Shown here in pieces: positions 16,911 through 51,312 of a DNA stretch of 64,000 nt. The notes below the pieces were generated by a model that saw only the letters and a list, made by a program, of their open reading frames with translations, was not told the origin of the DNA and made no database searches. Each line of letters starts with the position of its first letter. Position 1 is the first letter of the stretch. Source of the DNA: Bdellovibrionota bacterium (GTDB taxonomy: Bacteria > Bdellovibrionota_G > JALEGL01 > DATDPG01); NCBI GenBank assembly GCA_035292885.1, contig DATDPG010000019.1, forward strand, positions 59,570 to 123,569, written 5' to 3'. A program made the position numbers and the translations under genes.

Positions 16911-16939
16911 GGCGGAGCGGACAGGAGACCTGAAACGAC

Positions 16940-20131: not shown

Positions 20132-20132
20132 C

Positions 20133-21485: not shown

Positions 21486-21715
21486 CGAAAAAGAAAATTC
21501 TTTTTTTCAGCCAGCTCGTCTCTCTGGCGGGGATCTGGGTCTTCGTCTTGGGAATCAGCGTCTGGATTCTCCATCTCATCCGGATGGCCAACAAGCTTCA
21601 TGACGCTCCGACGGCGTCCGTATCGATCAGCCTGGTGGCCATTCCCGTCTTTCTCACAGGCGCGAGCGTGCTGACATATGTCTTCGTCGGCATACAGAGA
21701 GGTGGAAAGGAATAA
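21482..21715 (+). CDS. small two-TM membrane protein, translationally coupled (ActD-like position)
   Basis: ATGA overlap with the NrfD stop. 77 aa with two hydrophobic helices. Confidence 0.45.
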   Translation: MTKKKILFFSQLVSLAGIWVFVLGISVWILHLIRMANKLHDAPTASVSISLVAIPVFLTGASVLTYVFVGIQRGGKE

Positions 21716-21719
21716 TGCG

Positions 21720-22931
21720 ATGAACGGGCGGATTCCGATGGCCGTGTTCACCGTCGTTTTGGGCGCATCCTTCATGCTCGGCGGCTTCGCTCGGAGTGAG
21801 GAGGAGAATTGGCTTCCATCGGAGCCGCTCAAGGGGCGAGTTGTCTTCGAGCAAAAGCACTGCCCGCAGTGCCATTCGATCGGAGGCGCGAAAGGCGGGG
21901 TCGGTCCCGATTTAGCCGAAGCGGGAACGTATTTTCACGGGAGCTTTCTCCAGCTCTCATCCATTTTATGGAACCACATTCCGGACATGCTGGTGGAATA
22001 CAAAACGCGAAATCTTTCTTGGCCGAGTTTCTCCGAGGACGAGGTCGGCTATCTGATTTCCTATCTGTACTATCTGCGATACTTGGGAAGCCCGGGCGAT
22101 GTCGCCAACGGCCAGCGCCTCCTCCAGACGAAAGGGTGCGTCGCCTGTCATGCCGTCGGGAAACAAAAAAAGGCGGGGGACGCGCCTCCGCTGGATCAGC
22201 TCAAGAAATATGTTTCGCCGCTCTACCTGGTGCAGGCGGTTTGGAATCACGGGCCCCGGATGCAGCGGATGATCGAACAAAAGGGAATCAAGCGGCCGAC
22301 ATTCGACGGTCAGGAAATCAGCGACATGAGCGCGTACATCCGCAACGTAAGCCGCTGGAACACCGAGGAGAAAGTGTATCTCTCCCCGGGCGATCCGAAG
22401 AACGGAGAACGGGTGTTTGAAAGCAAGGGGTGCGTCAAGTGTCACTCCGAACAAAGGGGGAGGAAGCGGGCGCCGTCGCTGGAGAAGTCGAGCCTGAATG
22501 AGAGCGCGGCGGGCATCGCGGCGCTGATGTGGAACCATGCGGATGTCATGATGAGTTCGATGAAAGAGGAGAAAATCAGCTGGCCGACGTTCGAAGGGCG
22601 CGAGATGCCCGATCTGGTCGCATACCTGTTCTTTCTGGATTTTCTGGAACCGCCGGGAAACGCCGCAAAGGGCAAGGAGCTATTCGGCCAGAAACAATGT
22701 TCCTACTGTCATTCGATCCACGGAGCCGGGGGTACCATCGGACCCGATCTCGCGGTCGTCGGTTCTCTTTCCTCCACCCGGTCGATCCTCCGGATGATGG
22801 TGAATCACGCGGAAAACATGTCGGAAGCCGTCCTGGGCGCCGGGAAAGCCTGGCCGGTTCTGGGCGGTGACGAGATGAATAACATCTTCGCGTACTTAAA
22901 AAGCGTCGAACGGAAAGAAAAAAAGAAATAG
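21720..22931 (+). CDS. tetraheme cytochrome c built of four class-I cytochrome c domains
   Basis: Signal peptide. Four CxxCH motifs, each followed by GPDL and a distal MWNH motif (candidate Met ligand). RBS ggaaagg. Paralog of the gene at 37130..38365. Confidence 0.75.
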   Translation: MNGRIPMAVFTVVLGASFMLGGFARSEEENWLPSEPLKGRVVFEQKHCPQCHSIGGAKGGVGPDLAEAGTYFHGSFLQLSSILWNHIPDMLVEYKTRNLSWPSFSEDEVGYLISYLYYLRYLGSPGDVANGQRLLQTKGCVACHAVGKQKKAGDAPPLDQLKKYVSPLYLVQAVWNHGPRMQRMIEQKGIKRPTFDGQEISDMSAYIRNVSRWNTEEKVYLSPGDPKNGERVFESKGCVKCHSEQRGRKRAPSLEKSSLNESAAGIAALMWNHADVMMSSMKEEKISWPTFEGREMPDLVAYLFFLDFLEPPGNAAKGKELFGQKQCSYCHSIHGAGGTIGPDLAVVGSLSSTRSILRMMVNHAENMSEAVLGAGKAWPVLGGDEMNNIFAYLKSVERKEKKK

Positions 22932-22945
22932 CCCCTATTAAATGG

Positions 22946-23512
22946 CTACCTTCGCAATTTAGACAGAAGGGAGGCCAGTGTTCGAGCTTCCCCGGCGCCA
23001 TACCGGCGGGTCAATTTCTTCAGGAGCGGGAGATCCAGCTTTTCACGCGAGACCTCCAATACCCCTCGCACGTCATCCATATCTTTAGGTCCCCCGGCGA
23101 AGATTTTCATCGCAATAAAATCCTCCGCCCCAATGATCCGTATGTGGCCTCCCATAAAGGCGGCCTCCAGAGCTCTGGACAGAGCTCCCGCTTCCATCCC
23201 TCGAATTCCCAACAACAAATCCACTCGGTTTTCGTAGGCATCCGCAAGCATGAGTACCGCCGTCACCGGGTCATCGACATCTCCTTTACTCAATTCCACA
23301 AGAAAACCCGCCCGATGCATCTCCTTTTCAAGTTCAGGCAAGTCGCCTGATGGCAGCGAAATGACTACATCCGCGTCTTGGCTGGCGCGAACCAGACCAT
23401 GGAAAGCGGCAGCAATCGCACCCACCACGGCATACGGAATCTTCAAATGATTCAAGATGTCGACCGCGTCCAAGAGGAGCAGCGTGGATTGTCCAGGTCC
23501 CGTTGTCTTCAT
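22946..23512 (-). CDS. pol-beta-superfamily nucleotidyltransferase-fold protein (uncharacterised)
   Basis: AVVGAIAAAFHGLVRASQDADVVI fits the G[SG]...DxD NTase motif. 188 aa. Confidence 0.4.
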   Translation of the reverse strand: MKTTGPGQSTLLLLDAVDILNHLKIPYAVVGAIAAAFHGLVRASQDADVVISLPSGDLPELEKEMHRAGFLVELSKGDVDDPVTAVLMLADAYENRVDLLLGIRGMEAGALSRALEAAFMGGHIRIIGAEDFIAMKIFAGGPKDMDDVRGVLEVSREKLDLPLLKKLTRRYGAGEARTLASLLSKLRR

Positions 23513-23691
23513 GGAAATCGATCTCGCTCTGCCTTTCGGTTAGAGCGAAAGGACTTCCCGATCCTGTGGATCTCCATCACAAGACGGGAATGTTCCGCAT
23601 AGGCGATCAGGCGCTGCTCCGGCGACATACGCCGGGCACTTTCGATAAGCTTTCGCCGCATCCGTTCGCCGAGTCTGGATCTCTTTTTCAC
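23509..23691 (-). CDS. small basic hypothetical protein upstream of the NTase gene
   Basis: 60-aa ORF abutting the NTase start. No recognisable motif. Confidence 0.2.
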   Translation of the reverse strand: MKKRSRLGERMRRKLIESARRMSPEQRLIAYAEHSRLVMEIHRIGKSFRSNRKAERDRFP

Positions 23692-37129: not shown

Positions 37130-38365
37130 CTACGGTAAGTGCTTCGCATTCGGACTCGCCGGAGCCAGGCTCGTCAGAAACGCATAGAGATCCGCCATCT
37201 CCCGGCCCGTCAGTTTGGGCCACTTCAAGTGTTGCTCGGTATGCTTCTCTTGCATCTCGGTGGAGTGGTTCCACATCGCCGCGACCATGCCCATGGGGGA
37301 GTTCAATTTGCTGATGGCGGCGAAATCTTTCGCCGCGTTTCGTCCCTTGCCGTTTAAGGAGTGGCACGTCAGGCATTCTCGGTCCCTAACGAGATTCTCC
37401 CCTGTGGCGGGGCTCCCCGGTGCGTCCTCCAGTTTCATGCTGTAGAGATACGCGATGACGTGCGCCATCTCCCCCTCCTTGAAATCCGGGAACGTGAGTT
37501 TCTTTTCTTTCATCATCTCCCACATGGCGGGGCCGTGATTCCACATCTTGGCCGCGATCTCGGTCACGGGATAGTTGAAATCGACCTCAGCGAAATCGGG
37601 CGCCGTGGTTGGTGGTTTGGCACGGAACGAATGGCAATGCATGCACCCTTTTTCGGTCAAGAGTTCCTTCCCCTTTGAGGGATCGCCGAGGTCATAGTCG
37701 CTGGCCGGGAAGACGGTCGGGGCCATATACGAACGGATTCCGGCGGCCAGGGCGTCCATCTCGTCCTCTTCGATGACGGGCCGATCGATCTTGTACTTCT
37801 CAAAAAGCGCCAGCATTTTCGGGCCATGGTTCCACATCGCTTCCGCCAGTCGGATGGGGGAGATGTATTCCTTTTTCGCGCTGATGTCGGGAGCGATTCG
37901 GGCGCCTTCCCCTCCAAATTGATGACAAGAGAAGCATCCCTTTTCCTTCAGCACCTTTCTTCCCATCGATTCCCTCACCGGTTCCGCCATGTACCGGATG
38001 AAAGAGAGATAGCGAACCAGCTCGGACATCTCCTTCGGCGTGAACTTCGGAAAGGCATACCCTTTGGTCTCGATCTTCTTCGCCATTCTCGGAAGGTGAT
38101 TCCACATGACGGAAGAAAGCTCGAGGTATGTACCGTAAAACTTGCGGTTGCCCAGGTCGGGACCGCCGCGGCCCCCCCTCCCGTACACGGAATGGCACTG
38201 CGCGCATCCCTTCTGATGGAAGACTTCCCGACCCGGCCACGGTGAGGCCGAAGTGGCTGCTTCCTGCGCCCGAAGGGCGAAAATGGAGCCGGATGACATC
38301 AGGAGATACGCGAGAATGAATTGCAGGAGGCGGATGCAGTTTCTCCGGGTAGTGGACATAGTCAC
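37130..38365 (-). CDS. tetraheme cytochrome c of four class-I domains (paralog of 21720..22931)
   Basis: Signal peptide. Four CxxCH motifs, each with a GPD and a downstream MWNH motif. Confidence 0.75.
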   Translation of the reverse strand: MTMSTTRRNCIRLLQFILAYLLMSSGSIFALRAQEAATSASPWPGREVFHQKGCAQCHSVYGRGGRGGPDLGNRKFYGTYLELSSVMWNHLPRMAKKIETKGYAFPKFTPKEMSELVRYLSFIRYMAEPVRESMGRKVLKEKGCFSCHQFGGEGARIAPDISAKKEYISPIRLAEAMWNHGPKMLALFEKYKIDRPVIEEDEMDALAAGIRSYMAPTVFPASDYDLGDPSKGKELLTEKGCMHCHSFRAKPPTTAPDFAEVDFNYPVTEIAAKMWNHGPAMWEMMKEKKLTFPDFKEGEMAHVIAYLYSMKLEDAPGSPATGENLVRDRECLTCHSLNGKGRNAAKDFAAISKLNSPMGMVAAMWNHSTEMQEKHTEQHLKWPKLTGREMADLYAFLTSLAPASPNAKHLP

Positions 38366-38828: not shown

Positions 38829-39257
38829 TCATTCTTTGAAGGGATTGAGGATTCGCAAGTCCTCTACGTGAAAACCATGCTGCAGGTCTTCGGTATAGAG
38901 CGCGTCACAATTCGAGGCCAGTGCCTGAGCCACAATGGCCGCATCCCAGAAAGACCAGCGATAACGATGCCGAAGGCGACACGCGTGGACGAAGATTTCC
39001 TGAGTTGTCACGACCGGGTCCCATGAAAAGTAACTACGACAGACATCGACGGCATCCTCGAAGGAAAGAGGTTTCGGGATCTTGGTCGCGACCGTGACGA
39101 GAAATTCCTGCAACACCTGCAGGCTCGTCGCAGCCGATTGGTTTTCCCAATGGGCCTTTACGAGATCCGAAGATCGATTTGATTTACCGGAATCACTTCG
39201 ATCATACGCATAGACGAGAATATTCGTGTCAAAGAAAGCGCGCCTATTTTCGGACAT
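38829..39257 (-). CDS. vapC: PIN-domain toxin (VapC)
   Basis: FFDTNILVY N-terminus and conserved acidic residues of the PIN fold. 142 aa. Confidence 0.7.
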   Translation of the reverse strand: MSENRRAFFDTNILVYAYDRSDSGKSNRSSDLVKAHWENQSAATSLQVLQEFLVTVATKIPKPLSFEDAVDVCRSYFSWDPVVTTQEIFVHACRLRHRYRWSFWDAAIVAQALASNCDALYTEDLQHGFHVEDLRILNPFKE

Positions 39258-39489
39258 GCAGGGCGTCCCTCGACCAGGTCACCTTTCCCACTTCATACAG
39301 GCCCTTCGCCATTCTTCGCATTTCCTTGCGAAACGCACGTTGATGAAGCGATTTCCGCGAAATGAGTTCGTGGGCGTATTTGGCAAGAAGCCTGGAGACA
39401 GACTGGTTGGCTTCGGCCGCGGCGATTCGGAGCTTTCGCAACAACGGGCGGGGGAGGGTCAACGTGATGTTTTCGAGATCTCTCTTCAT
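39244..39489 (-). CDS. vapB: ribbon-helix-helix antitoxin (VapB/CopG-like)
   Basis: MKRDLENITLTLPRPLLRKLRIAAAEANQSVSRLL RHH pattern. Overlaps the vapC start. Confidence 0.55.
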   Translation of the reverse strand: MKRDLENITLTLPRPLLRKLRIAAAEANQSVSRLLAKYAHELISRKSLHQRAFRKEMRRMAKGLYEVGKVTWSRDALHVRK

Positions 39490-39551
39490 TACACTATTAT
39501 CGTGTAACACGATTATCGTGTCAATGCCTCGACCGGGTGGTGCCAAGACAG

Positions 39552-40793
39552 TTACTTGCGCGGCGGAGGAAGCGAACGGATTTTGAGAGCCAGAGCGATG
39601 ACCAACAACGTGAGGAATATTGTGCTGATTCCGAGGCCGACTCGGCGGGTTTTGTTTTCGCGGAGAGCGGCTTTCCCCAAAGCGATGGCTTGATCCACAG
39701 CTTTTCGTCCCTCCGTGATCTTCGCCTCCACCCCCGGCATGGAAAAGGAGTGAATCTCGGTTCGTGCCTGAATCAACGCCTGCCGGGCATTTTGCATGCT
39801 GTCCTCGGCTTCGGTGACGTCCATTCCCTTGTCCCTCGCTTCTTCGATAATCTTCGAAGCTTCGGCCGAATAATTCTTCAAAGAGCCGATCATCTTGGAG
39901 AACGCCATGGCCACGGCGGCGCCTTTATCCCCCTCTTTGTGGCACTTGGCGCAGATCGCGCCTTGCTGCGTCCCGATCCGGTCATCTGAGATGTGAACGA
40001 TCAGATGATTGCCGTGGCAGGAAATGCATTCGCCGTAGGGATCCTTCTGCAGGGCTTTCGCCATGGGACTCTTGAGAAACAGCTCGGCGTTGTGGACGTG
40101 GCAGGAGCCGCAAATATGGGCGATGGATTTCAGTCCCGGCGGTGTGGCGCCGTGGTTGCCGTGACAATCGTTGCAGGCGGGAGCGCCCCGGACATCTCCT
40201 TTTTCAAGCAGAGCTTTCCCATGCACACTTTTCGCGTACTCGGCATAGACGGTCGTCGAGATCTTGTACGGCTTCATATATTCGGGGTCGGCGTGGCAAT
40301 GGGCGCACATCGTCGGCAGGTTCACCGCGTAAACCGGAGACTTCGCGTCGTTGACTTTCCGGATGTTGTGCACGCTGTGGCAGCTGACGCATTCGGCGAC
40401 TTTGGTGTCCCCCTGTTTCAGTTTCTTGCCGTGCTGGCTGGTCAGGTAGAGCTCATACTGATCGACCCGAAGCATCGGGTTGTATTTCTTCATGAAGACC
40501 GGGTTGCTGTGGCATTTCGCGCAAAGTTTCGGAATGTCCGCCCTCTTCGGCGCCCCTTTGAAGCCTTTCTTCGGGTCCATTGAGATATCTTGGTCGTCCG
40601 AGGTCGGATCTCCGCCGTGGCATTCGTTGCACCCGATTCCCGCCGTGGCGTGCACGTCATCCTTCCAGCGGGTGGAGGGCTCATCTTCCATCGACTGATG
40701 GCAGATAAGGCATTGGCCGCCGGGCAGCGCAGCAGCTTCTTCGGCGTATGCCGACGAAAGTACGTTCAGCAGAATGAATAAAATCCAACTCAT
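39552..40793 (-). CDS. membrane-anchored nonaheme c-type cytochrome (cytochrome c subunit of bc-type complex)
   Basis: Signal MSWILFILLNVLSSAYA. Nine CxxCH motifs. C-terminal TM helix (GLGISTIFLTLLVIALAL). The start overlaps the cytochrome b stop. Confidence 0.75.
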   Translation of the reverse strand: MSWILFILLNVLSSAYAEEAAALPGGQCLICHQSMEDEPSTRWKDDVHATAGIGCNECHGGDPTSDDQDISMDPKKGFKGAPKRADIPKLCAKCHSNPVFMKKYNPMLRVDQYELYLTSQHGKKLKQGDTKVAECVSCHSVHNIRKVNDAKSPVYAVNLPTMCAHCHADPEYMKPYKISTTVYAEYAKSVHGKALLEKGDVRGAPACNDCHGNHGATPPGLKSIAHICGSCHVHNAELFLKSPMAKALQKDPYGECISCHGNHLIVHISDDRIGTQQGAICAKCHKEGDKGAAVAMAFSKMIGSLKNYSAEASKIIEEARDKGMDVTEAEDSMQNARQALIQARTEIHSFSMPGVEAKITEGRKAVDQAIALGKAALRENKTRRVGLGISTIFLTLLVIALALKIRSLPPPRK

Positions 40794-41881
40794 GCGAGTA
40801 CGTGTCCGGCGATGGTCATTCCTATAAAAAAAAGCAATAGCGCCATCCCGATGCCGCGGAGAATCTTTGTGGTCGATTTCTTTTTTCCGCAGTCGATCCA
40901 TGGAATAAGCAGCCAAAACACGCCGATCCCGCCGAAGATCATGTGTCCGACCAGCTCCCCGTCAATCGGCCCCACCTTGGCGGGCAAGAACTTGAGCGTC
41001 TGGAACATGAAAAGGAAATACCACTCCGGTTTGATTCCGGCCGGGGCGGAGGCGAAAGGATCGGCTTTCCTTCCCAGTTCCCAGGGGAAGAAGACCGCCA
41101 GGATCGCCAAAATATCGAGAATGATAAACCAAAGTAAAACGTCCCGGAGAAAGAAGTGCGGGAAAAACGGGATACTCTTCCGGTTTTCCGGGTGGCGTTT
41201 CCAATCTTCGGGCTCGTGCATTCCCTGGATCTGCACGAACAGCAAATGAATACCCAGAACGGAAGTGAAGATCGCCGGGAGGAGGGCGACATGCAAAGCG
41301 AAGAAGCGGGTCAGCGTAGAGCCGGTGACTTCTTCTCCGCCGCGGAGAACATGCATGAGGGTTTTCCCGATGTACGGCACGACGCCGATCATGTCGGTGC
41401 CGACCTTGGTGGCGAAGAAGGAAAGTTCGTTCCACGGCAGCAGGTAACCCGAAAACCCGAACGTCATGACGATTCCCAGAAGGGCGAGCCCCGTGACCCA
41501 GCTGAGTTCGCGGGGTTTCCTGTAAGCTCCCATGAAAAAGACGCTGAACATGTGGATGATGACGGCCAGGACCATCAAATTGGCCGACCAGCTGTGGATC
41601 GACCGGATCAGCCAGCCGAAAGGCACTTTCGATGTGATAAATTGAACGCTCTCGAAGGCCGCGTCGGCGCTCGCCTTGTAATAGAACATCAGGAGAATGC
41701 CGGTGGAGAGTTGGACGATGAAGAGAAAGAGGGAAACTCCGCCGAAGTAATACCAGATCGCGGTCTTTCCCATCGGCACTTCTTTGTGCCGCCCCCACTC
41801 AATCAGCTGTGCGATGGGATATCGGTCGGACAGCCATTCGATCGCGAGAGCGGCCCTACGCTTTAAGTGAGATGTAAACAT
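40790..41881 (-). CDS. cytochrome b (fused b6/subunit IV type)
   Basis: Conserved His-containing helices (WSANLMVLAVIIHMF, FFALHVALLPA). PEWYFL motif. Confidence 0.8.
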   Translation of the reverse strand: MFTSHLKRRAALAIEWLSDRYPIAQLIEWGRHKEVPMGKTAIWYYFGGVSLFLFIVQLSTGILLMFYYKASADAAFESVQFITSKVPFGWLIRSIHSWSANLMVLAVIIHMFSVFFMGAYRKPRELSWVTGLALLGIVMTFGFSGYLLPWNELSFFATKVGTDMIGVVPYIGKTLMHVLRGGEEVTGSTLTRFFALHVALLPAIFTSVLGIHLLFVQIQGMHEPEDWKRHPENRKSIPFFPHFFLRDVLLWFIILDILAILAVFFPWELGRKADPFASAPAGIKPEWYFLFMFQTLKFLPAKVGPIDGELVGHMIFGGIGVFWLLIPWIDCGKKKSTTKILRGIGMALLLFFIGMTIAGHVLA

Positions 41882-42308
41882 CTTCTCCCTGAACGTGGAC
41901 TTCGTACGTGTCGAGCGGGTGAGGCGGCGGGCCGGCCACATTGTTTCCGTTCAAATCGTATTGACCGTTGTGACAAGCGCACCAAATGCGCTCCATGTCG
42001 GGCCGGTACTGGACGATGCAGTCGAGGTGCGTGCATTTTCCCGTGAACGCGGCGAAACTGCCGTCCTTCTTGCGGACCAGCAGCGCCGGTTTGTTTCCGA
42101 ACTTGCAGATTTTCCCGCTGTTCGGGGGAATCTCGGAGACCGCAGCGACTTTCGCCGAAGAGACTTTGGCTTCGGTCTCCGCGACAGGAGTGAGGTAGCG
42201 AACGATCGGATAAAAGACGGACCCCACCCAGGCGAAACCGCTGGCCCCTAAAAGGGTGTTCAAGAATCCGCGTCGGGAGGTTTCGGTCGAGCTTCGAATC
42301 GGTTTCAT
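41856..42308 (-). CDS. Rieske [2Fe-2S] protein, TAT-exported
   Basis: SRRGFLNTLLGA twin-arginine signal. CTHLDC and CACHNGQY Rieske boxes. Confidence 0.85.
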   Translation of the reverse strand: MKPIRSSTETSRRGFLNTLLGASGFAWVGSVFYPIVRYLTPVAETEAKVSSAKVAAVSEIPPNSGKICKFGNKPALLVRKKDGSFAAFTGKCTHLDCIVQYRPDMERIWCACHNGQYDLNGNNVAGPPPHPLDTYEVHVQGEDVYISLKA

Positions 42309-42596
42309 TGAATTACAGTAACGAGATTTCGCCCCAAGAAAATGGAGGAGATTTTAGAGTGTTCCCTTGCTTCAATCCAGTTTTGAGGTCGACGAAGCGG
42401 AGTTTCGCAGGATCGGAAAGGTCGACCATGATCCAAATCAGCTTGAAATTACGACGAACGGTTGATTTTTAACCACCGGTCTCGGAGCGCGGGGTTATTT
42501 CTCCAGACCTCAAAGATCATCCTTCGGTATCCTTCGAGCCAAAGAATAATCTGTTCAGGCGTGAGTTTGGGTGTTCGTCCCCAGTCATGAGTTGTT

Positions 42597-43094
42597 TTAG
42601 GCACTTTCTTGCCCTGTAAGTTTTCTCAATTCCGCTGCGTCGAAAAGGTCCTTGTCTCTGCCGGCTCTGTCCTTCATTTCAATCAGGTCCATTTTGCCGA
42701 TCACTCTAATTTTAATTCCAAAGGCATCGACCAACAATTGCCTGCCCGCAAGTTCCTGAAATGGCTTGGGTTCTTGTGAAAAGACATCGATGACTTCAAA
42801 TGGATTTCCCGGGTGAATGAAAGAGAAAACCATCATTCCCTTTTCCTCTATCCATTCTTTGCGTTTATGCGCATCGGCGAAATCTTTTGCATCAACCGGC
42901 AGGCGGGGCTTGAAACCAAGATGCGAGACCATTTCTACAAATGCCAGGACATTTTTGCGCTCAAGGTGCACGATGAGATCAAGATCCACGGTCGCTCGTT
43001 GGACCTGATGAAAATTCACGGCGAATCCGCCTGCGACGAGATACTCGATTTTTCTTCGGTCAAGCTCAATGAAAAGTTCTTTGTACGGAACCAT
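42597..43094 (-). CDS. nucleotidyltransferase-fold protein (uncharacterised), inserted inside respiratory gene cluster
   Basis: YLVAGGFAVNFHQVQRATVDLDLIV NTase-type motif. 165 aa. Confidence 0.4.
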   Translation of the reverse strand: MVPYKELFIELDRRKIEYLVAGGFAVNFHQVQRATVDLDLIVHLERKNVLAFVEMVSHLGFKPRLPVDAKDFADAHKRKEWIEEKGMMVFSFIHPGNPFEVIDVFSQEPKPFQELAGRQLLVDAFGIKIRVIGKMDLIEMKDRAGRDKDLFDAAELRKLTGQESA

Positions 43095-43236
43095 CGTTCG
43101 ATACTGTAACGAATCTGGGTAGAAATTCCCATTCGTCGCCTTGGGAGGATGGCGAAGGCCTCATCGGCGTGTAAAACCGATCGGACGGCGTCCCGCGGAA
43201 TCAAAGACTTTCCAAGATTCTCTCTCTAAGTATGGG

Positions 43237-45168
43237 TTAAGGGTTGGGGCGATCGAGTTCGCGCGGATGATCCCGTTCCATTTCATGGCGGGTCACTTTG
43301 CCCGTGAGCCACGTTACGTTCATCGGATATTCATCCGGATGGAATATCACGAAGAAGAGGTGCCACACGAGAATGGCCAGCGTCGCCAGCCACGCCTCAA
43401 AATAGTGAATCAACTCCGCCAGCGGGATGCCCCAAACGGGAAGGAATCTTGAAAACAGTTCTGGAAACCAGAGCGCAAAGCCCGTGACCGACATCACGAT
43501 CGTTCCCCAAATGAGCGCCCAATATTCCGCCTTGTGAATGTACGTGTACCGGCCGAGCTTCGGTGCCGTGGCTGCGCGCGCCCGGACGAGTTTAACGTAA
43601 TAAAAGATGTTGGCCGATAAATCCCGGACATCCGTGAGACGCGGAAGAAGCTCCCGAATCTCCTTTCGGCCCTGACGTGTGAAGATCGAATGGAAAATGT
43701 GAAGGACTCCCGCGCTTAACATGATCACCGCGCTGGTACGATGGATGACGCCGCGAGCGTGTTCACCCAAATGAACCCAATCCAAAATCACCGTCCAGCC
43801 GGCGCGAGAAAAATGAAGCGCGAAGCCGGTGATGACAAGCGTCGTAAAGCTCACCAGGAGCAGGCCGTGAGCCACGAGCTGAATCGTTGTGAATCGGGTG
43901 TAGACGACTTCTTCCCGGTGTGAGCGGATCTTTTTCACGACGGCCGCTGCATAAATGAGCAAGTTATGAAGAAGCATCAGGCCGATCGTGCTGACAATCA
44001 TCCAGAGATAGAGAATGCGAACCCAGTAGAGAATGGGGCTGGCTGTCGGAGAGGTGTCCAAGTGCACGGGAACGCGGCTGAACGCCTGCGTTGCATCGGG
44101 GTGGCACTTGCCGCAGGTCTTGGCCAGGTTGTCCGGATGAATCGAGGAGCGGGTATCGGAAGAGGGGAGAATCCGGTGCGTTTCATGGCAGCTGGAACAG
44201 TTTGCGACGGTGACCGAGCCGCGCCGGACGGCCATGCCATGATAACTCTGCATGTACGTTGAAAGCCGTTGAATTGAAAATCCGTATCGCTGGGCCAGAG
44301 TAAGATCGGAATGACAGTGGCCGCACGTCTTCGTTGTCAGCTGTGCAGGCGACACAGGCGATTCAGGCGATTTCGTGTCGACGATGGCGTGTTCGCCGTG
44401 GCAGTCCGTGCAGGCGGGGGCGTCCGTAATCCCGCGAGCGACGGCCTGTCCGTGCACGGAGACCTTATAATCTTCTAAGATATCGCTGTGGCATCTTCCA
44501 CATGTTGCGGGAATTTGTTTCTTCGAAACCGCGGACATCATTTCACGTCCCGGCTGGATCGTGTGATAGCCGTGACAGTCGGTACAGACGGCGGCTTTCA
44601 GATTACCAGCCGCAATGGCACGACCGTGGACGCTGTTTTTATACGCGCCGACAGGGTCGGACACGGGGATGTCGTATTTCTTGGCGAGTTTGATGTCGGC
44701 GTGACACTTGGCGCACAAAGCGGGGACGTTGGCTTTGCTGTGTCTCGCGGTTTCGCTGGTGAACGGCTGAATCAAATGCGCGTCGCCGTGGCAATCGACA
44801 CAAGAAGGCGCATCTGAAATCCCATTGTTCTTTGCAGTGCCGTGCGTGCTGCCGCGGTACTCCTTTTCGGCATCTTCATGACAGCTTCCGCAATTTACTT
44901 TTTGTGGAGCTTCCTCATGCTCGCCGAAGGGCCCGCCGGCGTGGCAGTCGGTGCAGGCTAGTTCGCCGTGGACGGAAGCCTTGAAAACTTTGGGATCCAC
45001 GACGTCATGGCAATCAACACACTTTTTCGGATCGATTCGGTTCGCGGCAAAAACCGACGAAATCGCAAACATTGCGCAGCCGACGAATGCCAAGCCCGAT
45101 TTTGTAAAGGGAACCCCGGTCGGTTTCAAAAATTGGACACTCATCCGATGAAAACGCCCGCCAAGCAT
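43237..45168 (-). CDS. 11-heme c-type cytochrome fused to a C-terminal b-type di-heme membrane domain (CbcL-like quinol oxidoreductase)
   Basis: Eleven CxxCH motifs in the N-terminal 380 aa. C-terminal 260 aa with about 5 TM helices and conserved His (HydC/FdnI-like). A possible alternative start at 45144 (MSVQFLK) gives a signal peptide. Confidence 0.75.
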   Translation of the reverse strand: MLGGRFHRMSVQFLKPTGVPFTKSGLAFVGCAMFAISSVFAANRIDPKKCVDCHDVVDPKVFKASVHGELACTDCHAGGPFGEHEEAPQKVNCGSCHEDAEKEYRGSTHGTAKNNGISDAPSCVDCHGDAHLIQPFTSETARHSKANVPALCAKCHADIKLAKKYDIPVSDPVGAYKNSVHGRAIAAGNLKAAVCTDCHGYHTIQPGREMMSAVSKKQIPATCGRCHSDILEDYKVSVHGQAVARGITDAPACTDCHGEHAIVDTKSPESPVSPAQLTTKTCGHCHSDLTLAQRYGFSIQRLSTYMQSYHGMAVRRGSVTVANCSSCHETHRILPSSDTRSSIHPDNLAKTCGKCHPDATQAFSRVPVHLDTSPTASPILYWVRILYLWMIVSTIGLMLLHNLLIYAAAVVKKIRSHREEVVYTRFTTIQLVAHGLLLVSFTTLVITGFALHFSRAGWTVILDWVHLGEHARGVIHRTSAVIMLSAGVLHIFHSIFTRQGRKEIRELLPRLTDVRDLSANIFYYVKLVRARAATAPKLGRYTYIHKAEYWALIWGTIVMSVTGFALWFPELFSRFLPVWGIPLAELIHYFEAWLATLAILVWHLFFVIFHPDEYPMNVTWLTGKVTRHEMERDHPRELDRPNP

Positions 45169-45213
45169 ATCTCAGCTTGGCGGGCGCCGAAACATGAACT
45201 CATTCTGAGCCTG

Positions 45214-45588
45214 TTATTTCGCCTTTGACTGCAGGTCTCGCGTGTATTCCGTCAACGCCGTAATGTCGGCGTCCGACAGTCCTTCCAACTTCTTCATCTT
45301 CCCTTTGCCCTCTTTCATCGACTTCTTAATGTCGTCGTCGGTGATTTTCTTGGCTTCGGGGGAAAGGATGCTGAGCCCTTCCGGCTTTTCGAGCTTCAGG
45401 GTTTTAGCTACCGGCATCCAGGAGCCGTCCGCCTTCTTTCCGCCGCCGTCTTCCGCGTGGCATTTCTTGCAATGCTTGTCGTACAGCGCCTTTTTCGCGG
45501 CGTCATCCGCCGCGAATGCGGACGCGGCAAACATCAAAGCGGGCACAACCAGGATTCCGATCAGTCCAATCAACGTCTTCTTCAACAT
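45214..45588 (-). CDS. periplasmic monoheme class I cytochrome c (paralog of 12625..12975)
   Basis: RBS ggagg 7 nt upstream of the ATG at 45588. Signal peptide. CKKCH. Near-identical core (LYDKHCKKCHAEDG.GKK...KTLKLEKPE) with the first copy. Confidence 0.8.
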   Translation of the reverse strand: MLKKTLIGLIGILVVPALMFAASAFAADDAAKKALYDKHCKKCHAEDGGGKKADGSWMPVAKTLKLEKPEGLSILSPEAKKITDDDIKKSMKEGKGKMKKLEGLSDADITALTEYTRDLQSKAK

Positions 45589-45644
45589 AGGCTTCCTCCA
45601 GTGTTTCTTTTTAGATGATGCCAAATTTACGAACATGATTCGGA

Positions 45645-45686
45645 TCAATGAAATGAAAAGAGGGCCGGCCCGTATGGGCCGGCCCC
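45645..45686 (-). terminator. intrinsic terminator after the outer-membrane cytochrome gene
   Basis: gggccggccc-gtat-gggccggccc GC hairpin followed on the minus strand by a T-rich run. Confidence 0.5.
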
Positions 45687-45719
45687 GTCAATCGCTCTGG
45701 ACGGTTCAAACTCTCGCGC

Positions 45720-48700
45720 TTAACGCAACGTCGCGTTCGGAACCGCCACGCCGGTGATTACCTTATACGTCCCTTGGAGGACGCCGACCTCGTATCCGGC
45801 GTTATGGACGCCCATGCTGCCGTCTCGAACCACCAGATTGTGGTTCCAGATCGCCCGGCGGATCTTGTCGGATCGGGCCCACTTGAAGGCCCCGCCGGCG
45901 GGATAGACGCTAACGCCGGGGTTGCAGTCCGCGGCGTTCGTGCAGGCCGTAGTAAGGTCGTTGTCGCACTTGCCGGCAATGTACGCCCCGCACGTGCTGA
46001 GGCACTTGTCGTGCGTCGGCGTCGGATCCAAAGGATCGACCGTACCACACGAGATGGTCGTATCTTCTTTGCACCGGTTCTTGCTCGAACCCGAGGTATT
46101 GCACGGACGCGCATCCGCGCCTGCACCGTTGAAGTTCGAGTAACCCAGAGCGTCCGGAACGATGCAGTCGTTGTCCGTGGAACACTCGATCTCATCCGTA
46201 CTCCCGGCGGTGGACCTCGGTTTTGCGATGGTGCACTTGTTGGTCGCAGTGACACAGGGGCCGAAGTACATCGTCCCCGTCGTCGCAATTTTGCAGTCCT
46301 CGTCCTTGGAGCAACTATAGGCCGAACGTTGATCACACTTTCCGGCTGTGATCGTCCCGCACGGTCCGTAGTTCGTCGCTGATACGGTCGTCACATTCAC
46401 CTTCTTCAGGTTGCATCCGGCATCCGAAGTGCAGAATTGAGCGTCGGCCACAATCGTAGTACTTGCTGCCGAGCAAGTCTTGACCGCGTCGCAACTCGTG
46501 TCACCAGCCGCCGTGCAACTGATGTAGGGCGCCAGCGTACACTTCTTGTTTGCGTTGCAGTCACCCGCGTCCAGTGTAGTGACACTGCACGTTCCCAGGT
46601 TCACGTCGTCGTACGCTTTGATGGCGTCCGACAAGAGGAGCGCAAGCCCCGTGACTTCGTCCTGGATCCCCTCGATCGTCCCATCGCCGTCGTAATCGCC
46701 GCGAGCCTCACGGTTAATCTCCGTGAGATCCGTGTGACATGGCGTGCACGCGCTGATGTTCGCGAGCTCACCCGCTTCACCGGCTACGGTCTCCTCTTCC
46801 TCGGCACCGACTAGATGGCCGACGCCGTGACCGCTCATAATGTTGAAAGAGTGACCGCCCAAGTGGCGGAACCCATCCTCCGTCGCATCCGGCCCCTCGG
46901 CCATGTGGCACGTGAGGCACTTCCGGTTCTCCGTCGGCAATGTCGGGTCACCCGAAACATCCGCCAGAATAAATCCCGGCTCGGAATGGAACGAATTCCC
47001 CGTTGTGAAGACATCGTCGATTCCGTTTTTGTCGAGGTCGAGAAGAGCCCCCTTTCCTTCGAGAACGGGAGCCTGCGGATTGTAGTGGACCTGTCGCGTG
47101 TAATAGTCCGCGTTTTGCTCCAACGTCTCGCAGAGCGTATCTGAAACGCCGTCGCGATTCGTGTCGCACGAAAACTCTCCGAAACTGTAGAGGCCGTCGT
47201 GGCACTTGTAACAAACGGCCGCCTTCCCGGCATCCACTGTCGATTCGTCGATGATCATCTCGAGCTCTCCGTGCATTCGAAGCTGGTCCTCGTTTGTCGC
47301 GTCGTGCGGGTCATGACACCCAGCGCACCCGATACCGACGAAAGCCTCCTGTTCCGTGATCGGCGTGAGGGCTTCCTCGCCCCCCTCCACATAATTGATG
47401 AAGCCCTTGGAGGTATGGCAGCGTGTACAGGCTGCGTTCGTGAGCCATGAAACCTGATAGCTGGCGGAGCCGTGCGAGACGCCGGTCATGTTGTGCGAGG
47501 AGTTGATCCATTCGGCCTCTTGCGTATGACACTGGCCGCAGATACCGGTCTGAGAAGCGGAGACACCGATCTTCGTGGCGTCGCCGTTGTGTCCCGAACC
47601 CGGGCCATGGCAATTCTCACACTGAACACCGCTTAGAGCGGCCACGGAAGGCGCATCCGCCAAGAAATCGGCGTATGTGCCCGGCTGGGTGGAAACGTCA
47701 AAGCCGGTCGAGGCCACGGCCTCGTCAAATCCGCCGTTTGCGGCGGACGTATTGTAACCGACCGTTTCAAAGCCCCACAGATAGGGCTCGGGTGCCAGCG
47801 ATGACATGGCCAGATACGAATTTTCGTAGAGCTTTGAGTGATTTGTTCCCTGCCACTCGCCGACTTTGTCCGGCATCGCCGAACCGTCATGGCATCCGGC
47901 GCACTCGGGCCTCGCCGCGTCGCCGGTGATACTTCCGATGCCTACATACGTCCCGGCATACATCCGGAACGAACCCACGATCGTGCAATGATCCACGCCG
48001 CCGTCCGAGGTGTATTTACAATTGGGCGCGACACGGCCGCACGCCCGTACACCATCCGCATCGGGTCCCACAGCCGATTCATCGACCGTCGCCGTGTAGG
48101 CCACCGTGTAATACCCCTCGACATCCGGCGTGAACTTGGGGAGCTGAAGCGCTGAGGCTACGGTTCCGGAATCGGCAAAAACGGCTGCAGATCCATCCGG
48201 GGGTGTCAGCGTCCAAGACCAGTCATCGTTGATGGGCTTGGCGCGCCTCGTGGTCGGCGTGCTCGTCGAAGGCAACGAACCGTTACACGCTGTCGAAGTG
48301 GATGTGTACTCCAATATGACCGAACTGTTCGGTCCCTGCAGGTAGAGGGGAACATTCAGCGGAACGGTCCAAAGACCGCTCGACCGCTGAATCTCGGCAC
48401 CGGCGTCCTGAACATAGACCACCTGTGTCGTGCTGTCGCTGTTCCCGGCACCGTCGTCCACCGTCAACCTGAAATAGAGTTTCGTATCTTCGATCGAAAC
48501 AGGGAGCGGTTGCCACTTGTACTCATCACTTTGTCCGCCGTGCGCGGCGTTCTCCTCAGCTTCCCTCAAACCGACGGTCAGAAAATCCTTAAGCGCGGGA
48601 GCGGTGAACGGAAGAGTTGAGGACGTGCTCCCGGCCGTCGCGGTCGCGAAGGGGCCGGAGACCTGCTGCCAGCTGTAGTTCACGACACTTCCGCGGCTGT

Positions 48701-49163
48701 TTTCGCCGGAGAGAATTCCACCCGCGTCTTCCAAATCGATGGCCAGTTCATCCGTTCCGAATCGTGTGCGTGTGGTGATGGTGGAACCGGAACCGTTCGT
48801 GATGACCGCAAGAATCGTCTTGGCCGTGACGCTGACCGTGTCGGTGCTTTCGGCATCGTGGAGAGAGAGTTTCAACACGTACGTGCCGGCCGCGTCCGCG
48901 ACAAAGCTGGTCGCGATTTCGGAACCGCCCGTCAGAGCGGCGGAAGAACCGTCGGGTTTCGATTCAAGCGTCCATATAATATTGCCGACGACCGTGCTTC
49001 CGGAACCGTCCAAATTCACGGTGTCGCCGATCAGGACCTTCTGGTCCTCGCCTGCGTTAGCGGCGGCGGTCCCTTCCGGATCGTCGTCGCATGCCGAAAC
49101 ACTGATCGCCACGGCGGCAGCCGCGAGAAGATTGATCATCCAAAGTCCCTTCGTGCTTTTCAT
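45720..49163 (-). CDS. 1147-aa cell-surface multiheme (8 CxxCH) lipoprotein cytochrome with PKD/Ig-like N-terminal domains and Cys-rich C-terminal region (OmcB-like position)
   Basis: RBS gagggagag. Signal with lipobox ISVSAC. Eight CxxCH motifs between roughly residues 420 and 830. C-terminal region with dozens of Cys. Last gene of the porin-cytochrome operon. Confidence 0.7.
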   Translation of the reverse strand: MKSTKGLWMINLLAAAAVAISVSACDDDPEGTAAANAGEDQKVLIGDTVNLDGSGSTVVGNIIWTLESKPDGSSAALTGGSEIATSFVADAAGTYVLKLSLHDAESTDTVSVTAKTILAVITNGSGSTITTRTRFGTDELAIDLEDAGGILSGENSRGSVVNYSWQQVSGPFATATAGSTSSTLPFTAPALKDFLTVGLREAEENAAHGGQSDEYKWQPLPVSIEDTKLYFRLTVDDGAGNSDSTTQVVYVQDAGAEIQRSSGLWTVPLNVPLYLQGPNSSVILEYTSTSTACNGSLPSTSTPTTRRAKPINDDWSWTLTPPDGSAAVFADSGTVASALQLPKFTPDVEGYYTVAYTATVDESAVGPDADGVRACGRVAPNCKYTSDGGVDHCTIVGSFRMYAGTYVGIGSITGDAARPECAGCHDGSAMPDKVGEWQGTNHSKLYENSYLAMSSLAPEPYLWGFETVGYNTSAANGGFDEAVASTGFDVSTQPGTYADFLADAPSVAALSGVQCENCHGPGSGHNGDATKIGVSASQTGICGQCHTQEAEWINSSHNMTGVSHGSASYQVSWLTNAACTRCHTSKGFINYVEGGEEALTPITEQEAFVGIGCAGCHDPHDATNEDQLRMHGELEMIIDESTVDAGKAAVCYKCHDGLYSFGEFSCDTNRDGVSDTLCETLEQNADYYTRQVHYNPQAPVLEGKGALLDLDKNGIDDVFTTGNSFHSEPGFILADVSGDPTLPTENRKCLTCHMAEGPDATEDGFRHLGGHSFNIMSGHGVGHLVGAEEEETVAGEAGELANISACTPCHTDLTEINREARGDYDGDGTIEGIQDEVTGLALLLSDAIKAYDDVNLGTCSVTTLDAGDCNANKKCTLAPYISCTAAGDTSCDAVKTCSAASTTIVADAQFCTSDAGCNLKKVNVTTVSATNYGPCGTITAGKCDQRSAYSCSKDEDCKIATTGTMYFGPCVTATNKCTIAKPRSTAGSTDEIECSTDNDCIVPDALGYSNFNGAGADARPCNTSGSSKNRCKEDTTISCGTVDPLDPTPTHDKCLSTCGAYIAGKCDNDLTTACTNAADCNPGVSVYPAGGAFKWARSDKIRRAIWNHNLVVRDGSMGVHNAGYEVGVLQGTYKVITGVAVPNATLR

Positions 49164-49189
49164 GTTTTCTCTCCCTCTCATGAAAGTTC

Positions 49190-49849
49190 TTACTGCGTAT
49201 GACATATGATGCAAGCCTGTCCATTGTCCGGATGCCGAAGCGGCGTATGGCAGCCCCGGCAATCCGCGTTAGGTAGATGGTTGACGTTGCTCGGTCGCCT
49301 CGGCGTGGCCATGTGAGCCGAGCTCGTTTGGTGGCACACCACGCACCTCTGTGCCCCATACGATTCCAGCGGGTAATGACAGTTCAGGCAGTGCCGATTT
49401 TGGGACGCCCCGAACCCGGCCATGTGATCGATCGGCTTCGTTTCCATATGGCACCGCTGGCAGAAGTCGGTCCGGTGGCACGTCATGCACTGCGATCGGT
49501 CGAAGCCCACCTGGAGCGCATGGCCGCGGAGGCGGAAGAATTGGTTGTGATTCGCCGGCGGCGTGATCTGGTGGCATTCCGAGCAGCTGGACTGCGTGTG
49601 GCAGAGGTTGCAGCTGTTCTTCGTGTCGAACCTAAACCGCTGCACCAGCGCGCCGTGCTCATGCTTGAACGTCAAATCGTGCCAGGCCGGTTTCGTGTCT
49701 TTGGTCATCCCGCCTTCGTGACATTCCGAACAGTCGCTGTCTCGCGCAACATCCGGGTGCTCCCACGTTGTGCCTTCGTCGCACCCTTTGTTGCCGAGAA
49801 AAAATGGGACCGCGAGCATTATTGTTAAAACAGACAACGATCGTCTGAT
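49190..49849 (-). CDS. nonaheme periplasmic c-type cytochrome (OmaB-like; paralog of the heptaheme 13308..13937)
   Basis: Nine CxxCH motifs. Shares the SCxxCH..SSCxxCH and FCxRCH patterns with the heptaheme gene. The 5' end is uncertain because the ORF extension runs into the 119-bp palindrome. Confidence 0.7.
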   Translation of the reverse strand: MRRSLSVLTIMLAVPFFLGNKGCDEGTTWEHPDVARDSDCSECHEGGMTKDTKPAWHDLTFKHEHGALVQRFRFDTKNSCNLCHTQSSCSECHQITPPANHNQFFRLRGHALQVGFDRSQCMTCHRTDFCQRCHMETKPIDHMAGFGASQNRHCLNCHYPLESYGAQRCVVCHQTSSAHMATPRRPSNVNHLPNADCRGCHTPLRHPDNGQACIICHTQ

Positions 49850-49851
49850 GG

Positions 49852-49970
49852 GGTGCCAAGAAAATACGTTCGGGCTCCGGTCCCGACGGTACCCCCCAAG
49901 TCCATGCTCGAGACTGCGCGTGGACTTGGGTGTCCCCGTCGGGCCACCCGAACGTATTTTCTTGGCACCC
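49852..49970. repeat. 119-bp near-perfect palindrome between porin and nonaheme cytochrome genes
   Basis: Arms gggtgccaagaaaatacgttcggg (49852-49875) and cccgaacgtattttcttggcaccc (49947-49970) are exact reverse complements. Nested inner arms cccgacgg/ccgtcggg and aagtcca/tggactt. Starts 1 nt after the porin stop. Confidence 0.7.
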
Positions 49971-49971
49971 T

Positions 49972-51312
49972 TCAAAAGTTCCAAGCGACCCTCACATCCA
50001 ACGTATGGAAATTGTCCAGGTCACTGGTTTCAAATTCGTACCCGAGCCGCCCCTCAAAGTCTTTGAGAAACTTCACGGTTCCCCGCGCATAGTACGTTTG
50101 GACGTTGTCCGATTCGTTCCCGGCTAAAAGGTTATATCGATAGAGGTAGAAAGCTGTTCCGGCCGTCAGCCGCAGCTTCCGCTTCAACAGGTCTTGGGCG
50201 ATGGAGAAAGATGTCCCGTACGTATCGTTCTGAAGTTCGTTGTCCTGTCCCAAATAGTAATCGCCGGTTAACGAAAGGCTCATGCCGTCGAGCGGCCATT
50301 CGATCGTTGACCCCGTCAAAAAGAACCGCTGAAAACCGTGATTGAACGCACTGGCGACCTGCTCTTCAATCAAAATACGGAATGCATACCCCGCATCCAG
50401 GGCAAAATGCTCGCCGATCCCCTTCATCCCGGTGAAGGCCATTTCGTAATACGGTTTGTATTCCCCGGCGAACGAATACGGATCCAGATCGATCACGCGG
50501 ACACCGTACGACTCGAGGAGACTGAAGAAGTGAAACTGGAGAGAAAGGTTCTGTTCGATGAATCGGTACCGGGTGTCGAGGGCCAAGTCCCGGACTTGAT
50601 CCAAGAACGATGTAAACCTCGAGGAAATCATGAGCCCCGGCTGGGCGTCCCACCAAACGCTCAGGCCGAAGAGATCATCTTCGATGTCACCGACGTTCGC
50701 CCGGAAGCCGGTGAAGTCATCCTTCAAATGAACGTAATCGAAACGGGCCCGAACCACCTTGACCGGATCGATCTCAAACGCTCCGCCGGCGACAAAATCG
50801 CCGCTGTCGGAACCGGTTTCCGTTTCGTAGAAATGGACCGGAACGCCGCCGTACGACATCAGCTTGAACCCTTTGGCTTCCCGCCACTGAAGGGAGAGGC
50901 CGTCGAAGTACAGCGACTCGAATTCCTGCCGGAACTGCCGTCCCGCGCGAAGCCGATCGAATACGCCGAGGTTGTTGGCGTCGAGGTAGGCGTGGTAGAT
51001 CCGCCCCGCGGCGCCGGTGTTGAAGGAGTCGTACACGCCATTGAACGTGGAATCCGAACTGTCGCCGTCCAGGTCGAAAATCCCGCCGGCCTGCAGGGAA
51101 ACCGCCACGCGGTCGTTCAAAGGCTCGCCCATGTTGAGCGAAAGAAGCGTTTCAAGATCCTGATCGCTGGTATCGGCGGTGGCGCGCAGTTTGTAACGGG
51201 TGCTGATGGAACCGAAAATATTGGAGTCTTCCGCGATCGCCGCATCGCAATAGACATACGCCCCAAAAAGGAGAAGCGTACATCCCAACCGACGGCGGCG
51301 AGAGGCGAGCAT
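49972..51312 (-). CDS. outer-membrane beta-barrel protein, candidate porin of the second porin-cytochrome conduit
   Basis: Signal MLASRRRRLGCTLLLFGAYVYCDAAIA. 446 aa. Amphipathic beta pattern. C-terminal VRVAWNF. Confidence 0.55.
   Translation of the reverse strand: MLASRRRRLGCTLLLFGAYVYCDAAIAEDSNIFGSISTRYKLRATADTSDQDLETLLSLNMGEPLNDRVAVSLQAGGIFDLDGDSSDSTFNGVYDSFNTGAAGRIYHAYLDANNLGVFDRLRAGRQFRQEFESLYFDGLSLQWREAKGFKLMSYGGVPVHFYETETGSDSGDFVAGGAFEIDPVKVVRARFDYVHLKDDFTGFRANVGDIEDDLFGLSVWWDAQPGLMISSRFTSFLDQVRDLALDTRYRFIEQNLSLQFHFFSLLESYGVRVIDLDPYSFAGEYKPYYEMAFTGMKGIGEHFALDAGYAFRILIEEQVASAFNHGFQRFFLTGSTIEWPLDGMSLSLTGDYYLGQDNELQNDTYGTSFSIAQDLLKRKLRLTAGTAFYLYRYNLLAGNESDNVQTYYARGTVKFLKDFEGRLGYEFETSDLDNFHTLDVRVAWNF

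Follow-up and report, generated by a model that had tools for sequence, protein, structure and literature searches.

Why does a small gene with a polymerase-beta-type nucleotidyltransferase (NTase) fold stand in the middle of a row of respiratory genes? The question is raised by a window of 64,000 nt (the whole stretch of DNA that was analysed) from a Bdellovibrionota metagenome-assembled genome (MAG; locus tags VI895_01450, VI895_01535). In this window a 12-kb series of co-oriented cytochrome and electron-transfer genes (39552..51312) includes such a gene, here called NTase1, at 42597..43094. A sequence-only reading had described an "orphan" NTase embedded in a respiratory supercluster, and had proposed either a mobile or defence insertion or an uncharacterised regulator. 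Of these options the insertion was supported, whereas anti-phage defence and regulation of respiration were not. The reading that we favour on balance is that of an inserted, autonomous two-gene toxin–antitoxin cassette resembling MenAT1, located at a respiratory operon junction. Its two parts differ in strength: the segment 42449..43094 is very probably an autonomous inserted two-gene cassette unrelated to respiration, whereas a MenT1-like toxin–antitoxin mechanism, proposed by analogy, has at best about an even chance of being correct.

NTase1 (165 aa, minus strand) is a MenT1-like minimal nucleotidyltransferase and putative toxin located between the CbcL-type and Rieske genes. It is not an orphan, and neither is a second NTase of the window, NTase2 (22946..23512): each is accompanied by a conserved small open reading frame (ORF) missed earlier (42449..42604 and 23509..23691, respectively). 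The partner of NTase1, a putative antitoxin or regulatory subunit of 51 aa, begins with a GTG codon on the minus strand and overlaps NTase1 by 8 nt at the stop codon. The related loci L001–L022 included duplicates and corresponded to 18 distinct loci, or 20 with the addition of L113 and L114 and 21 with the window itself. A homologue of partner 1 was present directly downstream of the NTase and on the same strand in all 21, most of which are from Bdellovibrionota MAGs (hmmsearch E-values from 1e-10 to 1e-33). The start of the partner and the stop of the NTase usually overlapped by 4 nt (ATGA), and such an overlap, of 4 or 8 nt, suggests that the translation of the two genes is coupled. The partner-1 family, with the consensus DWG..LTPEQIIxWLEGxRxLMFEVWxNNPxLRxxWExxN, was represented by 49 clusters among 1.84 billion representatives. 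Partner 1 had no match in Pfam or PADLOC at E ≤ 1 and no sequence match in the Protein Data Bank (PDB) better than E 0.5, and scans of Pfam, NCBIfam, and PADLOC gave nothing significant for either small partner. Of the HEPN or antitoxin partner that the sequence-only reading had proposed to look for, a conserved small partner was indeed found, whereas Pfam matched no HEPN domain. Gene predictors left the small partner uncalled in L002 and L107–L109; because it is often uncalled, automated annotation can make such NTases look orphaned.

Some unusual architectures were seen among the matches to partner 1. In one protein (P0385) the partner domain was fused to two SH3-like repeats. Another (P0360) joins a remnant of the NTase N-terminus in frame with the partner and probably represents a cassette that has decayed. 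Two long Planctomycete-type proteins (P0370, P0386) contained tandem repeats of about 70 aa starting with PKLTPEQILAWADAH, which resemble the first half of the partner and match residues 8–28 only. The top partner match in the representative library (P0350, 1699 aa) was discarded as a low-complexity repeat artefact.

The evidence for an insertion comes from the comparison of related respiratory loci, from base composition, and from the neighbourhoods of the cassette elsewhere. The 81 loci fetched for comparison comprised 80 metagenome loci, whose cytochrome b was 52–63% identical to that of the window, and one additional locus, L025; about 45 of the metagenome loci, each of at least 6 kb, were tabulated. 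When the four cassette proteins were searched by BLAST, no ORF in any of the 81 loci matched either NTase or either partner. The synteny comparison did not show the NTase as a conserved and co-evolving member of the cluster: the NTase1 cassette is peculiar to the window genome, in contrast to the linkage of CbcL-type and Rieske genes, which is recurrent. The G+C content at third codon positions (GC3) was 0.49 in NTase1 and 0.52 in partner 1, against 0.65–0.74 in the respiratory neighbours, or about 0.2 below them. Elsewhere the cassette was flanked by lipopolysaccharide sugar genes and glycine cleavage genes, by lgt and an AAA protein gene, by aconitase and DAGK genes, by ctaA/B and a DUF420 gene, or by SprT and NUDIX genes. 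An all-against-all BLAST of the flanking ORFs of 19 cassette loci revealed essentially no shared genes.

Several distant lineages (loci such as L034, L057, L066, and L088) have, between the CbcL-type and Rieske genes, a conserved cytochrome of about 497–525 aa that is anchored in the membrane and has six or seven haem motifs. Located about 1.5 kb upstream of the Rieske gene, it occupies the position of the NTase cassette of the window.

The sequence around the cassette was searched for direct repeats and scars of insertion; no convincing target duplication was found, the only signal being a motif of 11 nt. Near-identical copies, TCGTTAC[A/T]GTA, are present on the minus strand at 43098-43110 and 42313-42325, a few bases upstream of the ATG codons of NTase1 and of the Rieske gene. 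The motif could represent either a target site duplicated upon insertion or a promoter element of the −10 type. Inspection by eye of the other NTase1-type loci revealed, in most of them, a −10-like hexamer about 7–15 nt before the NTase ATG and no obvious Shine–Dalgarno sequence, which hints at a near-leaderless transcript from a promoter belonging to the cassette.

The NTase fold attributed to 42597..43094 was confirmed by an AlphaFold model with a predicted local distance difference test score (pLDDT) of 94, for which the top PDB matches were MenT1, TM1012, LnuA, and ANT(2'')-Ia. Homologues of NTase1 formed 109 clusters at 40–72% identity (one self-hit reached 99%), and Bdellovibrionota MAGs were the source of most of them; the genome scan used an alignment of 12 closer sequences. 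The motifs GG(22-23), T35-x-D37-x-D39, D103, K141, D149, and D152 were all invariant in 33 homologues. In the sequence-profile search of the PDB, MenT1 (8an4) was the best match (E 1.7e-7), with both the N-terminal core and the C-terminal region aligned. In Foldseek, the MenAT1 and MenT1 structures 8an5 and 8an4 ranked first (E 2e-6, template modelling (TM) score 0.59–0.60, root-mean-square deviation (rmsd) above 8 Å). MenT1 is a tRNA nucleotidyltransferase toxin with a 68-aa antitoxin, MenA1, and its functional residues are T39, the phospho-acceptor, D41, K137, and D152 (PMC10435456, PMC11375011). These residues align to T35, D37, K141, and D152 of NTase1, which are among the invariant positions, and the full set of MenT1 catalytic residues is in place. 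As NTase1 shares this catalytic constellation and has its best fold match in MenT1, the leading hypothesis is that it works like MenT1.

The resemblance to MenAT1 (Rv0078B-Rv0078A of M. tuberculosis; PDB 8AN4, 8AN5, 8RR5) extends to the size of the NTase, minimal in both cases and in the range of 165–196 aa, to its rank as best PDB match by profile and by fold, and to the T-x-D, K, and D residues conserved at aligned positions. In both systems two genes form a tightly coupled operon with a very short partner lacking a DNA-binding domain. For partner 1, AlphaFold predicted a helix–kink–helix with helices at residues 16–36 (21 residues) and 38–50 (13 residues; pLDDT 88), and the topology of MenA1 is a long helix followed by a shorter one (PMC10435456). 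NTase1 differs in being only about 17–19% identical to MenT1 and in occurring in Bdellovibrionota rather than in Actinobacteria. With the larger DUF1814 systems of the AbiE and MenAT3 type it shares the logic of an NTase toxin and an architecture of motifs I/II (G-G ... [ST]xDxD) and III/IV (K ... D). In contrast, the AbiEii and MenT3 toxins measure about 250–300 aa, and their antitoxins are winged-helix/COG5340 proteins of roughly 200–300 aa. As in MenT and AbiEii systems, a putative antitoxin gene is adjacent to NTase1, though its sequence is unrelated to MenA1 and COG5340 and the gene order is reversed. The NTase2 cassette repeats the pattern in the canonical order, with the small gene first and an ATGA overlap.

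We propose that the cassette was acquired horizontally and placed in the 928-bp junction between two respiratory units, called A and B below. Free NTase1, with its minimal polymerase-beta fold, would extend the 3' CCA ends of tRNA by added nucleotides and thereby block aminoacylation and translation, as shown for MenT1 of M. tuberculosis. The two-helix partner would bind and neutralise NTase1, by occluding the active site, by inducing auto-phosphorylation of Thr35, or by both. In this proposal we infer the toxicity, the tRNA target, and the antitoxin role of the partner, as well as the direction and the timing of the insertion. Toxin–antitoxin cassettes between operons are commonplace. What is modestly new here is the combination of a MenT1-like minimal NTase, a partner that strictly co-occurs with it and had not been annotated before, and a reversed gene order.

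Several observations weigh against this proposal. The TM score to MenT1 reaches only about 0.6 with a high rmsd, and TM1012, LnuA, and ANT(2'')-Ia were nearly equal in Foldseek. NTase1 fell below the threshold of PF08843 (AbiEii/DUF1814; E 0.036, 14.4 bits vs 22.5) and gave no match to DUF6036 (PF19502) even at E ≤ 10; it was therefore filed as a member of neither family, and some of its homologues carry weak precomputed matches to PF19502, PF09970, or PF08843. Neither the PDB sequence search nor Foldseek returned a meaningful match for partner 1, to MenA1 or to any other structure, the two-helix shape of partner 1 is generic, and the NTase comes first in the cassette, the reverse of the order menA1-menT1. 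For an antitoxin, partner 1 is also unusually conserved, with W22, L23, E32, and W34 invariant. As to the insertion, in 16 of 19 loci the cassette had a lower G+C content than its flanks, so that the family itself may account for some of the compositional deviation. The genomes that provided the unrelated flanks are distantly related and share little synteny in any case. The NTase1 family is almost confined to chromosomes of Bdellovibrionota; no copy was found in the phage records and viral contigs searched, and plasmids gave only a 30%-identical relative. Anti-phage defence thus found no support in phage or viral-contig copies, nor in the PADLOC search with NTase1 and its partner, which returned nothing significant (only AbiEii, E 0.033, 11.5 bits).

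This chromosomal, phylum-restricted pattern is also compatible with a lineage-specific function passed on by vertical inheritance. The cassette could be a non-toxic housekeeping or regulatory module of Bdellovibrionota in which the NTase modifies an RNA, a protein, or a small molecule and the partner is a specificity or regulatory subunit, its respiratory position being incidental. We regard this main alternative as unlikely, though with an appreciable share of the probability. It would account for the identity of 55–70% across families of one phylum, for the invariant residues of the partner, for the chromosomal location of all copies with none in phage or viral collections, and for the single NTase1-type copy in the window; the fusion of the partner domain to SH3-like repeats in P0385 hints at a scaffold or adaptor role. 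However, the catalytic residues and the fold best match a known toxin, and a tight, overlapping two-gene layout in changing neighbourhoods is a signature of toxin–antitoxin systems. The GC3 deviation is strong in the window genome, and P0360 looks decayed in the manner of degenerating toxin–antitoxin loci. An activity on antibiotics or metabolites, for resistance or detoxification as with LnuA and ANT(2'')-Ia, appears improbable. LnuA (4fo1) and ANT(2'')-Ia (5cfu and others) were among the top folds, with a TM score of 0.6 and an rmsd lower than that of MenT1, and Pfam gave a weak match to Aminoglyc_resit (E 0.088). The LnuA profile nevertheless covers the N-terminal core only (E 0.18), whereas that of MenT1 covers both the N-terminal and the C-terminal K...D..D regions, and resistance NTases come without an obligatory, overlapping partner gene of 50 aa.

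The roles might also be inverted, as in the MNT-type pairs (type VII, HEPN-MNT logic), with the NTase as an antitoxin that nucleotidylates a toxic small partner. MNT antitoxins are minimal polymerase-beta NTases, and NTase1 is small and the first gene of its cassette. This would nevertheless be very improbable, as the 51-aa two-helix partner has no Rx4-6H motif and no HEPN match, NTase1 has the MenT-specific C-terminal K/D motif, and the sister DUF6036 cassette starts with the small gene, in the usual place of the antitoxin. The last alternative, that NTase1 is an accessory or regulator integral to the respiratory supercluster and co-evolving with it, hardly seems credible. NTase1 is co-oriented with the cluster, and no terminator-like site was found in either intergenic region flanking the cassette, so that read-through transcription is possible. 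Its closest homologue (70% identical, L113 2059-6649) follows ctaA/ctaB-like genes of haem-a synthesis, an ABC transporter, and a DUF420 gene; this placement beside respiratory-assembly genes is probably coincidental. The synteny already contradicts a respiratory role, with NTase1 lacking from all 81 related loci, including the approximately 45 of at least 6 kb, and adjoining unrelated genes elsewhere, and its codon composition is foreign to the cluster. An inserted MenAT1-like cassette thus remains the reading that we favour.

NTase2 (188 aa, 22946..23512, minus strand) is a member of the DUF6036 nucleotidyltransferases (PF19502, 26.7 bits vs a cut-off of 23.6). It had been described as following the module resembling alternative complex III (ACIII). 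It is indeed located at the end of that module, but on the opposite strand and in convergent orientation, and it therefore lies outside that operon. NTase2 is 27% identical to NTase1, and its segments RASQDAD and MK..GGPKDMDD align to the MenT-type motifs, with S-x-D and K...D..D kept. At least 1333 homologues were found across many phyla. Its partner (60 aa, 23509..23691, minus strand) is located upstream, its stop overlapping the NTase2 start by 4 nt (ATGA), and has the core motif MSPEQRLIAYAEHSRLVMEI. Homologous ORFs of 57–63 aa are immediately upstream of the NTase2 homologues in L106, L107/L108, and L110–L112, and both Terriglobia and other metagenomic contigs have partner-2 homologues, called or not, immediately ahead of their NTase2 homologues. 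A motif is common to both partner families (LTPEQIILWLEGYRRMIFEVW vs MSPEQRLIAYAEHSRLVMEIH). No alignment of partner 1 with partner 2 was obtained by BLASTP; hhalign of the two families gave a P-value of 1.9e-4 and a probability of 47% over the expected 30 motif columns. These similarities are suggestive, not conclusive, of a common origin of the two partner families.

A more distant relative is present on plasmid pACPOL4 of Acidisarcina polymorpha (L115, 2323-2974), where two IS6 transposase genes flank a 30%-identical NTase, with a recombinase gene next to it. The NTase is preceded by an unannotated 72-aa ORF with a similar helix-start motif, ...SRPVHERLDAAGEL, which suggests that this type of partner extends across a wider NTase clade. 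The likeness to the NTases of unknown function of DUF6036 (PF19502) and DUF2204 (PF09970) lies in NTase2 as a member and in its identity to NTase1. In contrast, NTase1 is under the threshold for both families, and the conserved small partners reported here are absent from Pfam. The literature search returned no paper on DUF6036 and a single, irrelevant mention of DUF2204. A link between the NTase1 family and the large uncharacterised DUF6036 family, with its own unannotated partner, is probable. A wider proposal, tentative and on the whole doubtful, is that minimal MenT-like NTase toxins make up one large superfamily, so far uncharacterised, to which the NTase1 and DUF6036 cassettes belong. 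These toxins would each be controlled by a new class of helical partner of about 50–70 aa with a [ST]P-x-[EQ]-[RQ]-[LI] helix-start motif, the gene order would be flipped between subfamilies, and the partner would induce a MenA1-like auto-phosphorylation of the Thr or Ser residue.

In the respiratory cluster itself, all the genes named by the sequence-only reading (nine, including NTase1) were present at their coordinates and co-oriented on the minus strand, with short spacings between consecutive genes (−127 to +142 nt). Unit A is composed of five genes and is headed by a gene for a porin-like protein of 446 aa (49972..51312) with a signal-peptide-like N-terminus and the C-terminal sequence ...AWNF. 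It had no match in Pfam or NCBIfam; its porin-like nature was judged from the signal-like N-terminus, the C-terminal Phe, and the conserved position in L025, where a 49% identical homologue heads the equivalent five-gene unit. The next gene encodes a 264-aa cytochrome with nine CxxCH motifs (49190..49984; Pfam scan and haem-motif count), the putative periplasmic component of a porin–cytochrome conduit. It is followed by the gene for a 1180-aa cytochrome with a PKD domain and eight CxxCH motifs (45720..49262; PF22352, PF09699, PF14522), a putative cell-surface cytochrome. Their homologues at the equivalent positions of L025 are 54% identical and, over 1200 aa, 44% identical, respectively. For a porin–cytochrome conduit in 45720..51312, the cytochrome genes were thus confirmed, and the adjacent barrel candidate is without a family match. 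The monohaem class I cytochrome c gene (45214..45648; PF00034, PF13442) is paired with the last gene of the unit, which encodes the CbcL-type protein of 643 aa (43237..45168), and the pairing recurs in L025 and in the P0113 contig.

The CbcL/MtrH/MtoC family associates an N-terminal multihaem c region (3–23 CX2CH motifs) with a C-terminal HydC/FdnI-like dihaem b-cytochrome membrane domain (PMC6295460). The 643-aa protein was assigned to this quinol oxidase/quinone reductase type because it has 11 CxxCH motifs within the N-terminal half plus a PF01292 b-cytochrome domain at residues 425–611 (37.9 bits vs a cut-off of 30.1). It also matched multihaem Pfam families and, weakly, the FdnI-type model TIGR01583, and it has thousands of homologues. 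Unit A, with its porin-like protein, periplasmic multihaem c, large surface multihaem c, and CbcL-type protein, resembles the modules for extracellular electron transfer of the Geobacter type. As in Geobacter-type CbcL, N-terminal CX2CH motifs are combined with a HydC/FdnI-like b-cytochrome domain (PMC6295460). The differences are the 11 haem motifs, compared to nine in G. sulfurreducens CbcL, the porin-like protein that matches no known family, and the host, a Bdellovibrionota MAG.

Unit B starts with the Rieske [2Fe-2S] subunit (41856..42308; PF00355), followed by cytochrome b (40790..41941; PF00033, PF13631, PF00032), in which b6 and subunit-IV-like parts are fused. The coordinates given here for cytochrome b assume the farthest upstream start codon, and translation probably begins further downstream. 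The third subunit (39552..40916) is a cytochrome with nine CxxCH motifs and a C-terminal membrane anchor. In 39552..42308 a Rieske protein, a cytochrome b with N- and C-terminal parts, and a c-type subunit are thus adjacent, as in known Rieske/cytochrome b complexes with a multihaem c subunit.

The supercluster did not prove to be a single operon: the comparison with related loci and a hairpin site point to at least three separable units. Units A and B each recur as blocks in other lineages. In L025, where the CbcL-type protein is 61% identical to that of the window, the five genes of unit A are in the same order and are followed by a convergent gene, with neither a Rieske gene nor an NTase after the unit. 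The P0113 contig has only the pair of monohaem c and CbcL-type genes, again followed by a convergent gene. The top terminator-like site (45661..45686, minus strand) separates the gene of the 1180-aa cytochrome from that of the monohaem c and consists of a G+C-rich hairpin, in which 10 of the 11 pairs are G-C, with a T-run after it; it may serve as an internal terminator or attenuator. Given this strong hairpin and the P0113 relative with the pair only, unit A may be two transcription units.

The trio of Rieske, cytochrome b, and multihaem cytochrome was kept in all of the approximately 45 tabulated loci, and a homologue of the multihaem cytochrome 39552..40916 was directly downstream of cytochrome b in nearly every locus extending past that gene. 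A CbcL-type gene was near the trio in about 19 of these loci (co-oriented and upstream in about 13, downstream in about six). In the 10 loci inspected, the gene directly upstream of Rieske was usually another cytochrome, with 4–8 haems. As the CbcL-type gene is near Rieske/cytochrome b in many loci, this linkage recurs and probably has a functional basis. Rather than one "12-kb supercluster", the genes are better seen as a series of separable blocks with selfish cassettes at their junctions: a porin–cytochrome trio, a pair of monohaem c and CbcL-type genes, and a trio of Rieske, cytochrome b, and nine-haem cytochrome.

Directly after unit B, a VapBC-type pair is encoded on the minus strand, with a ribbon-helix-helix (RHH)-like antitoxin (39244..39546; weak RHH matches) and a PIN toxin (38829..39257; PF01850, E 4.7e-9). 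The pair has a sigma-70-like promoter with 11 of 12 matches (39524..39496, minus strand) and an intermediate GC3 of 0.57–0.62. With the NTase1 cassette, the VapBC pair, and the NTase2 cassette each at a boundary, the window contains three toxin–antitoxin-like (selfish) cassettes at operon boundaries. A multi-domain class I cytochrome c gene follows the VapBC pair (37130-38365, minus strand), and a paralogue (21678-22931, plus strand) ends the ACIII-like module; the two proteins (411 and 417 aa) are 35% identical, and no homologue was found in the flanks of the related Rieske/cytochrome b loci. This ACIII-like or Qrc-like module (15120-22931, plus strand) encodes multihaem cytochromes c (393 and 167 aa), a molybdopterin-family protein (834 aa), a 4Fe-4S protein (228 aa), NrfD (544 aa), and the multi-domain cytochrome c. 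Units A and B and this module make the region unusually cytochrome-rich for a Bdellovibrionota genome. Further away (3606-6427), small stress-type genes encode HSP20, a universal stress protein, and three CBS-pair proteins.

For the organism, these results mean that NTase1 should be left out when the components and regulators of the electron-transfer machinery are listed. For the family, they provide a testable toxin–antitoxin candidate, composed of an NTase of about 160 aa with every MenT1 catalytic residue and a partner of about 50 aa. If the NTase1 and DUF6036 cassettes did form one superfamily, the MenT auto-phosphorylation paradigm would reach far beyond DUF1814, to thousands of environmental bacteria.

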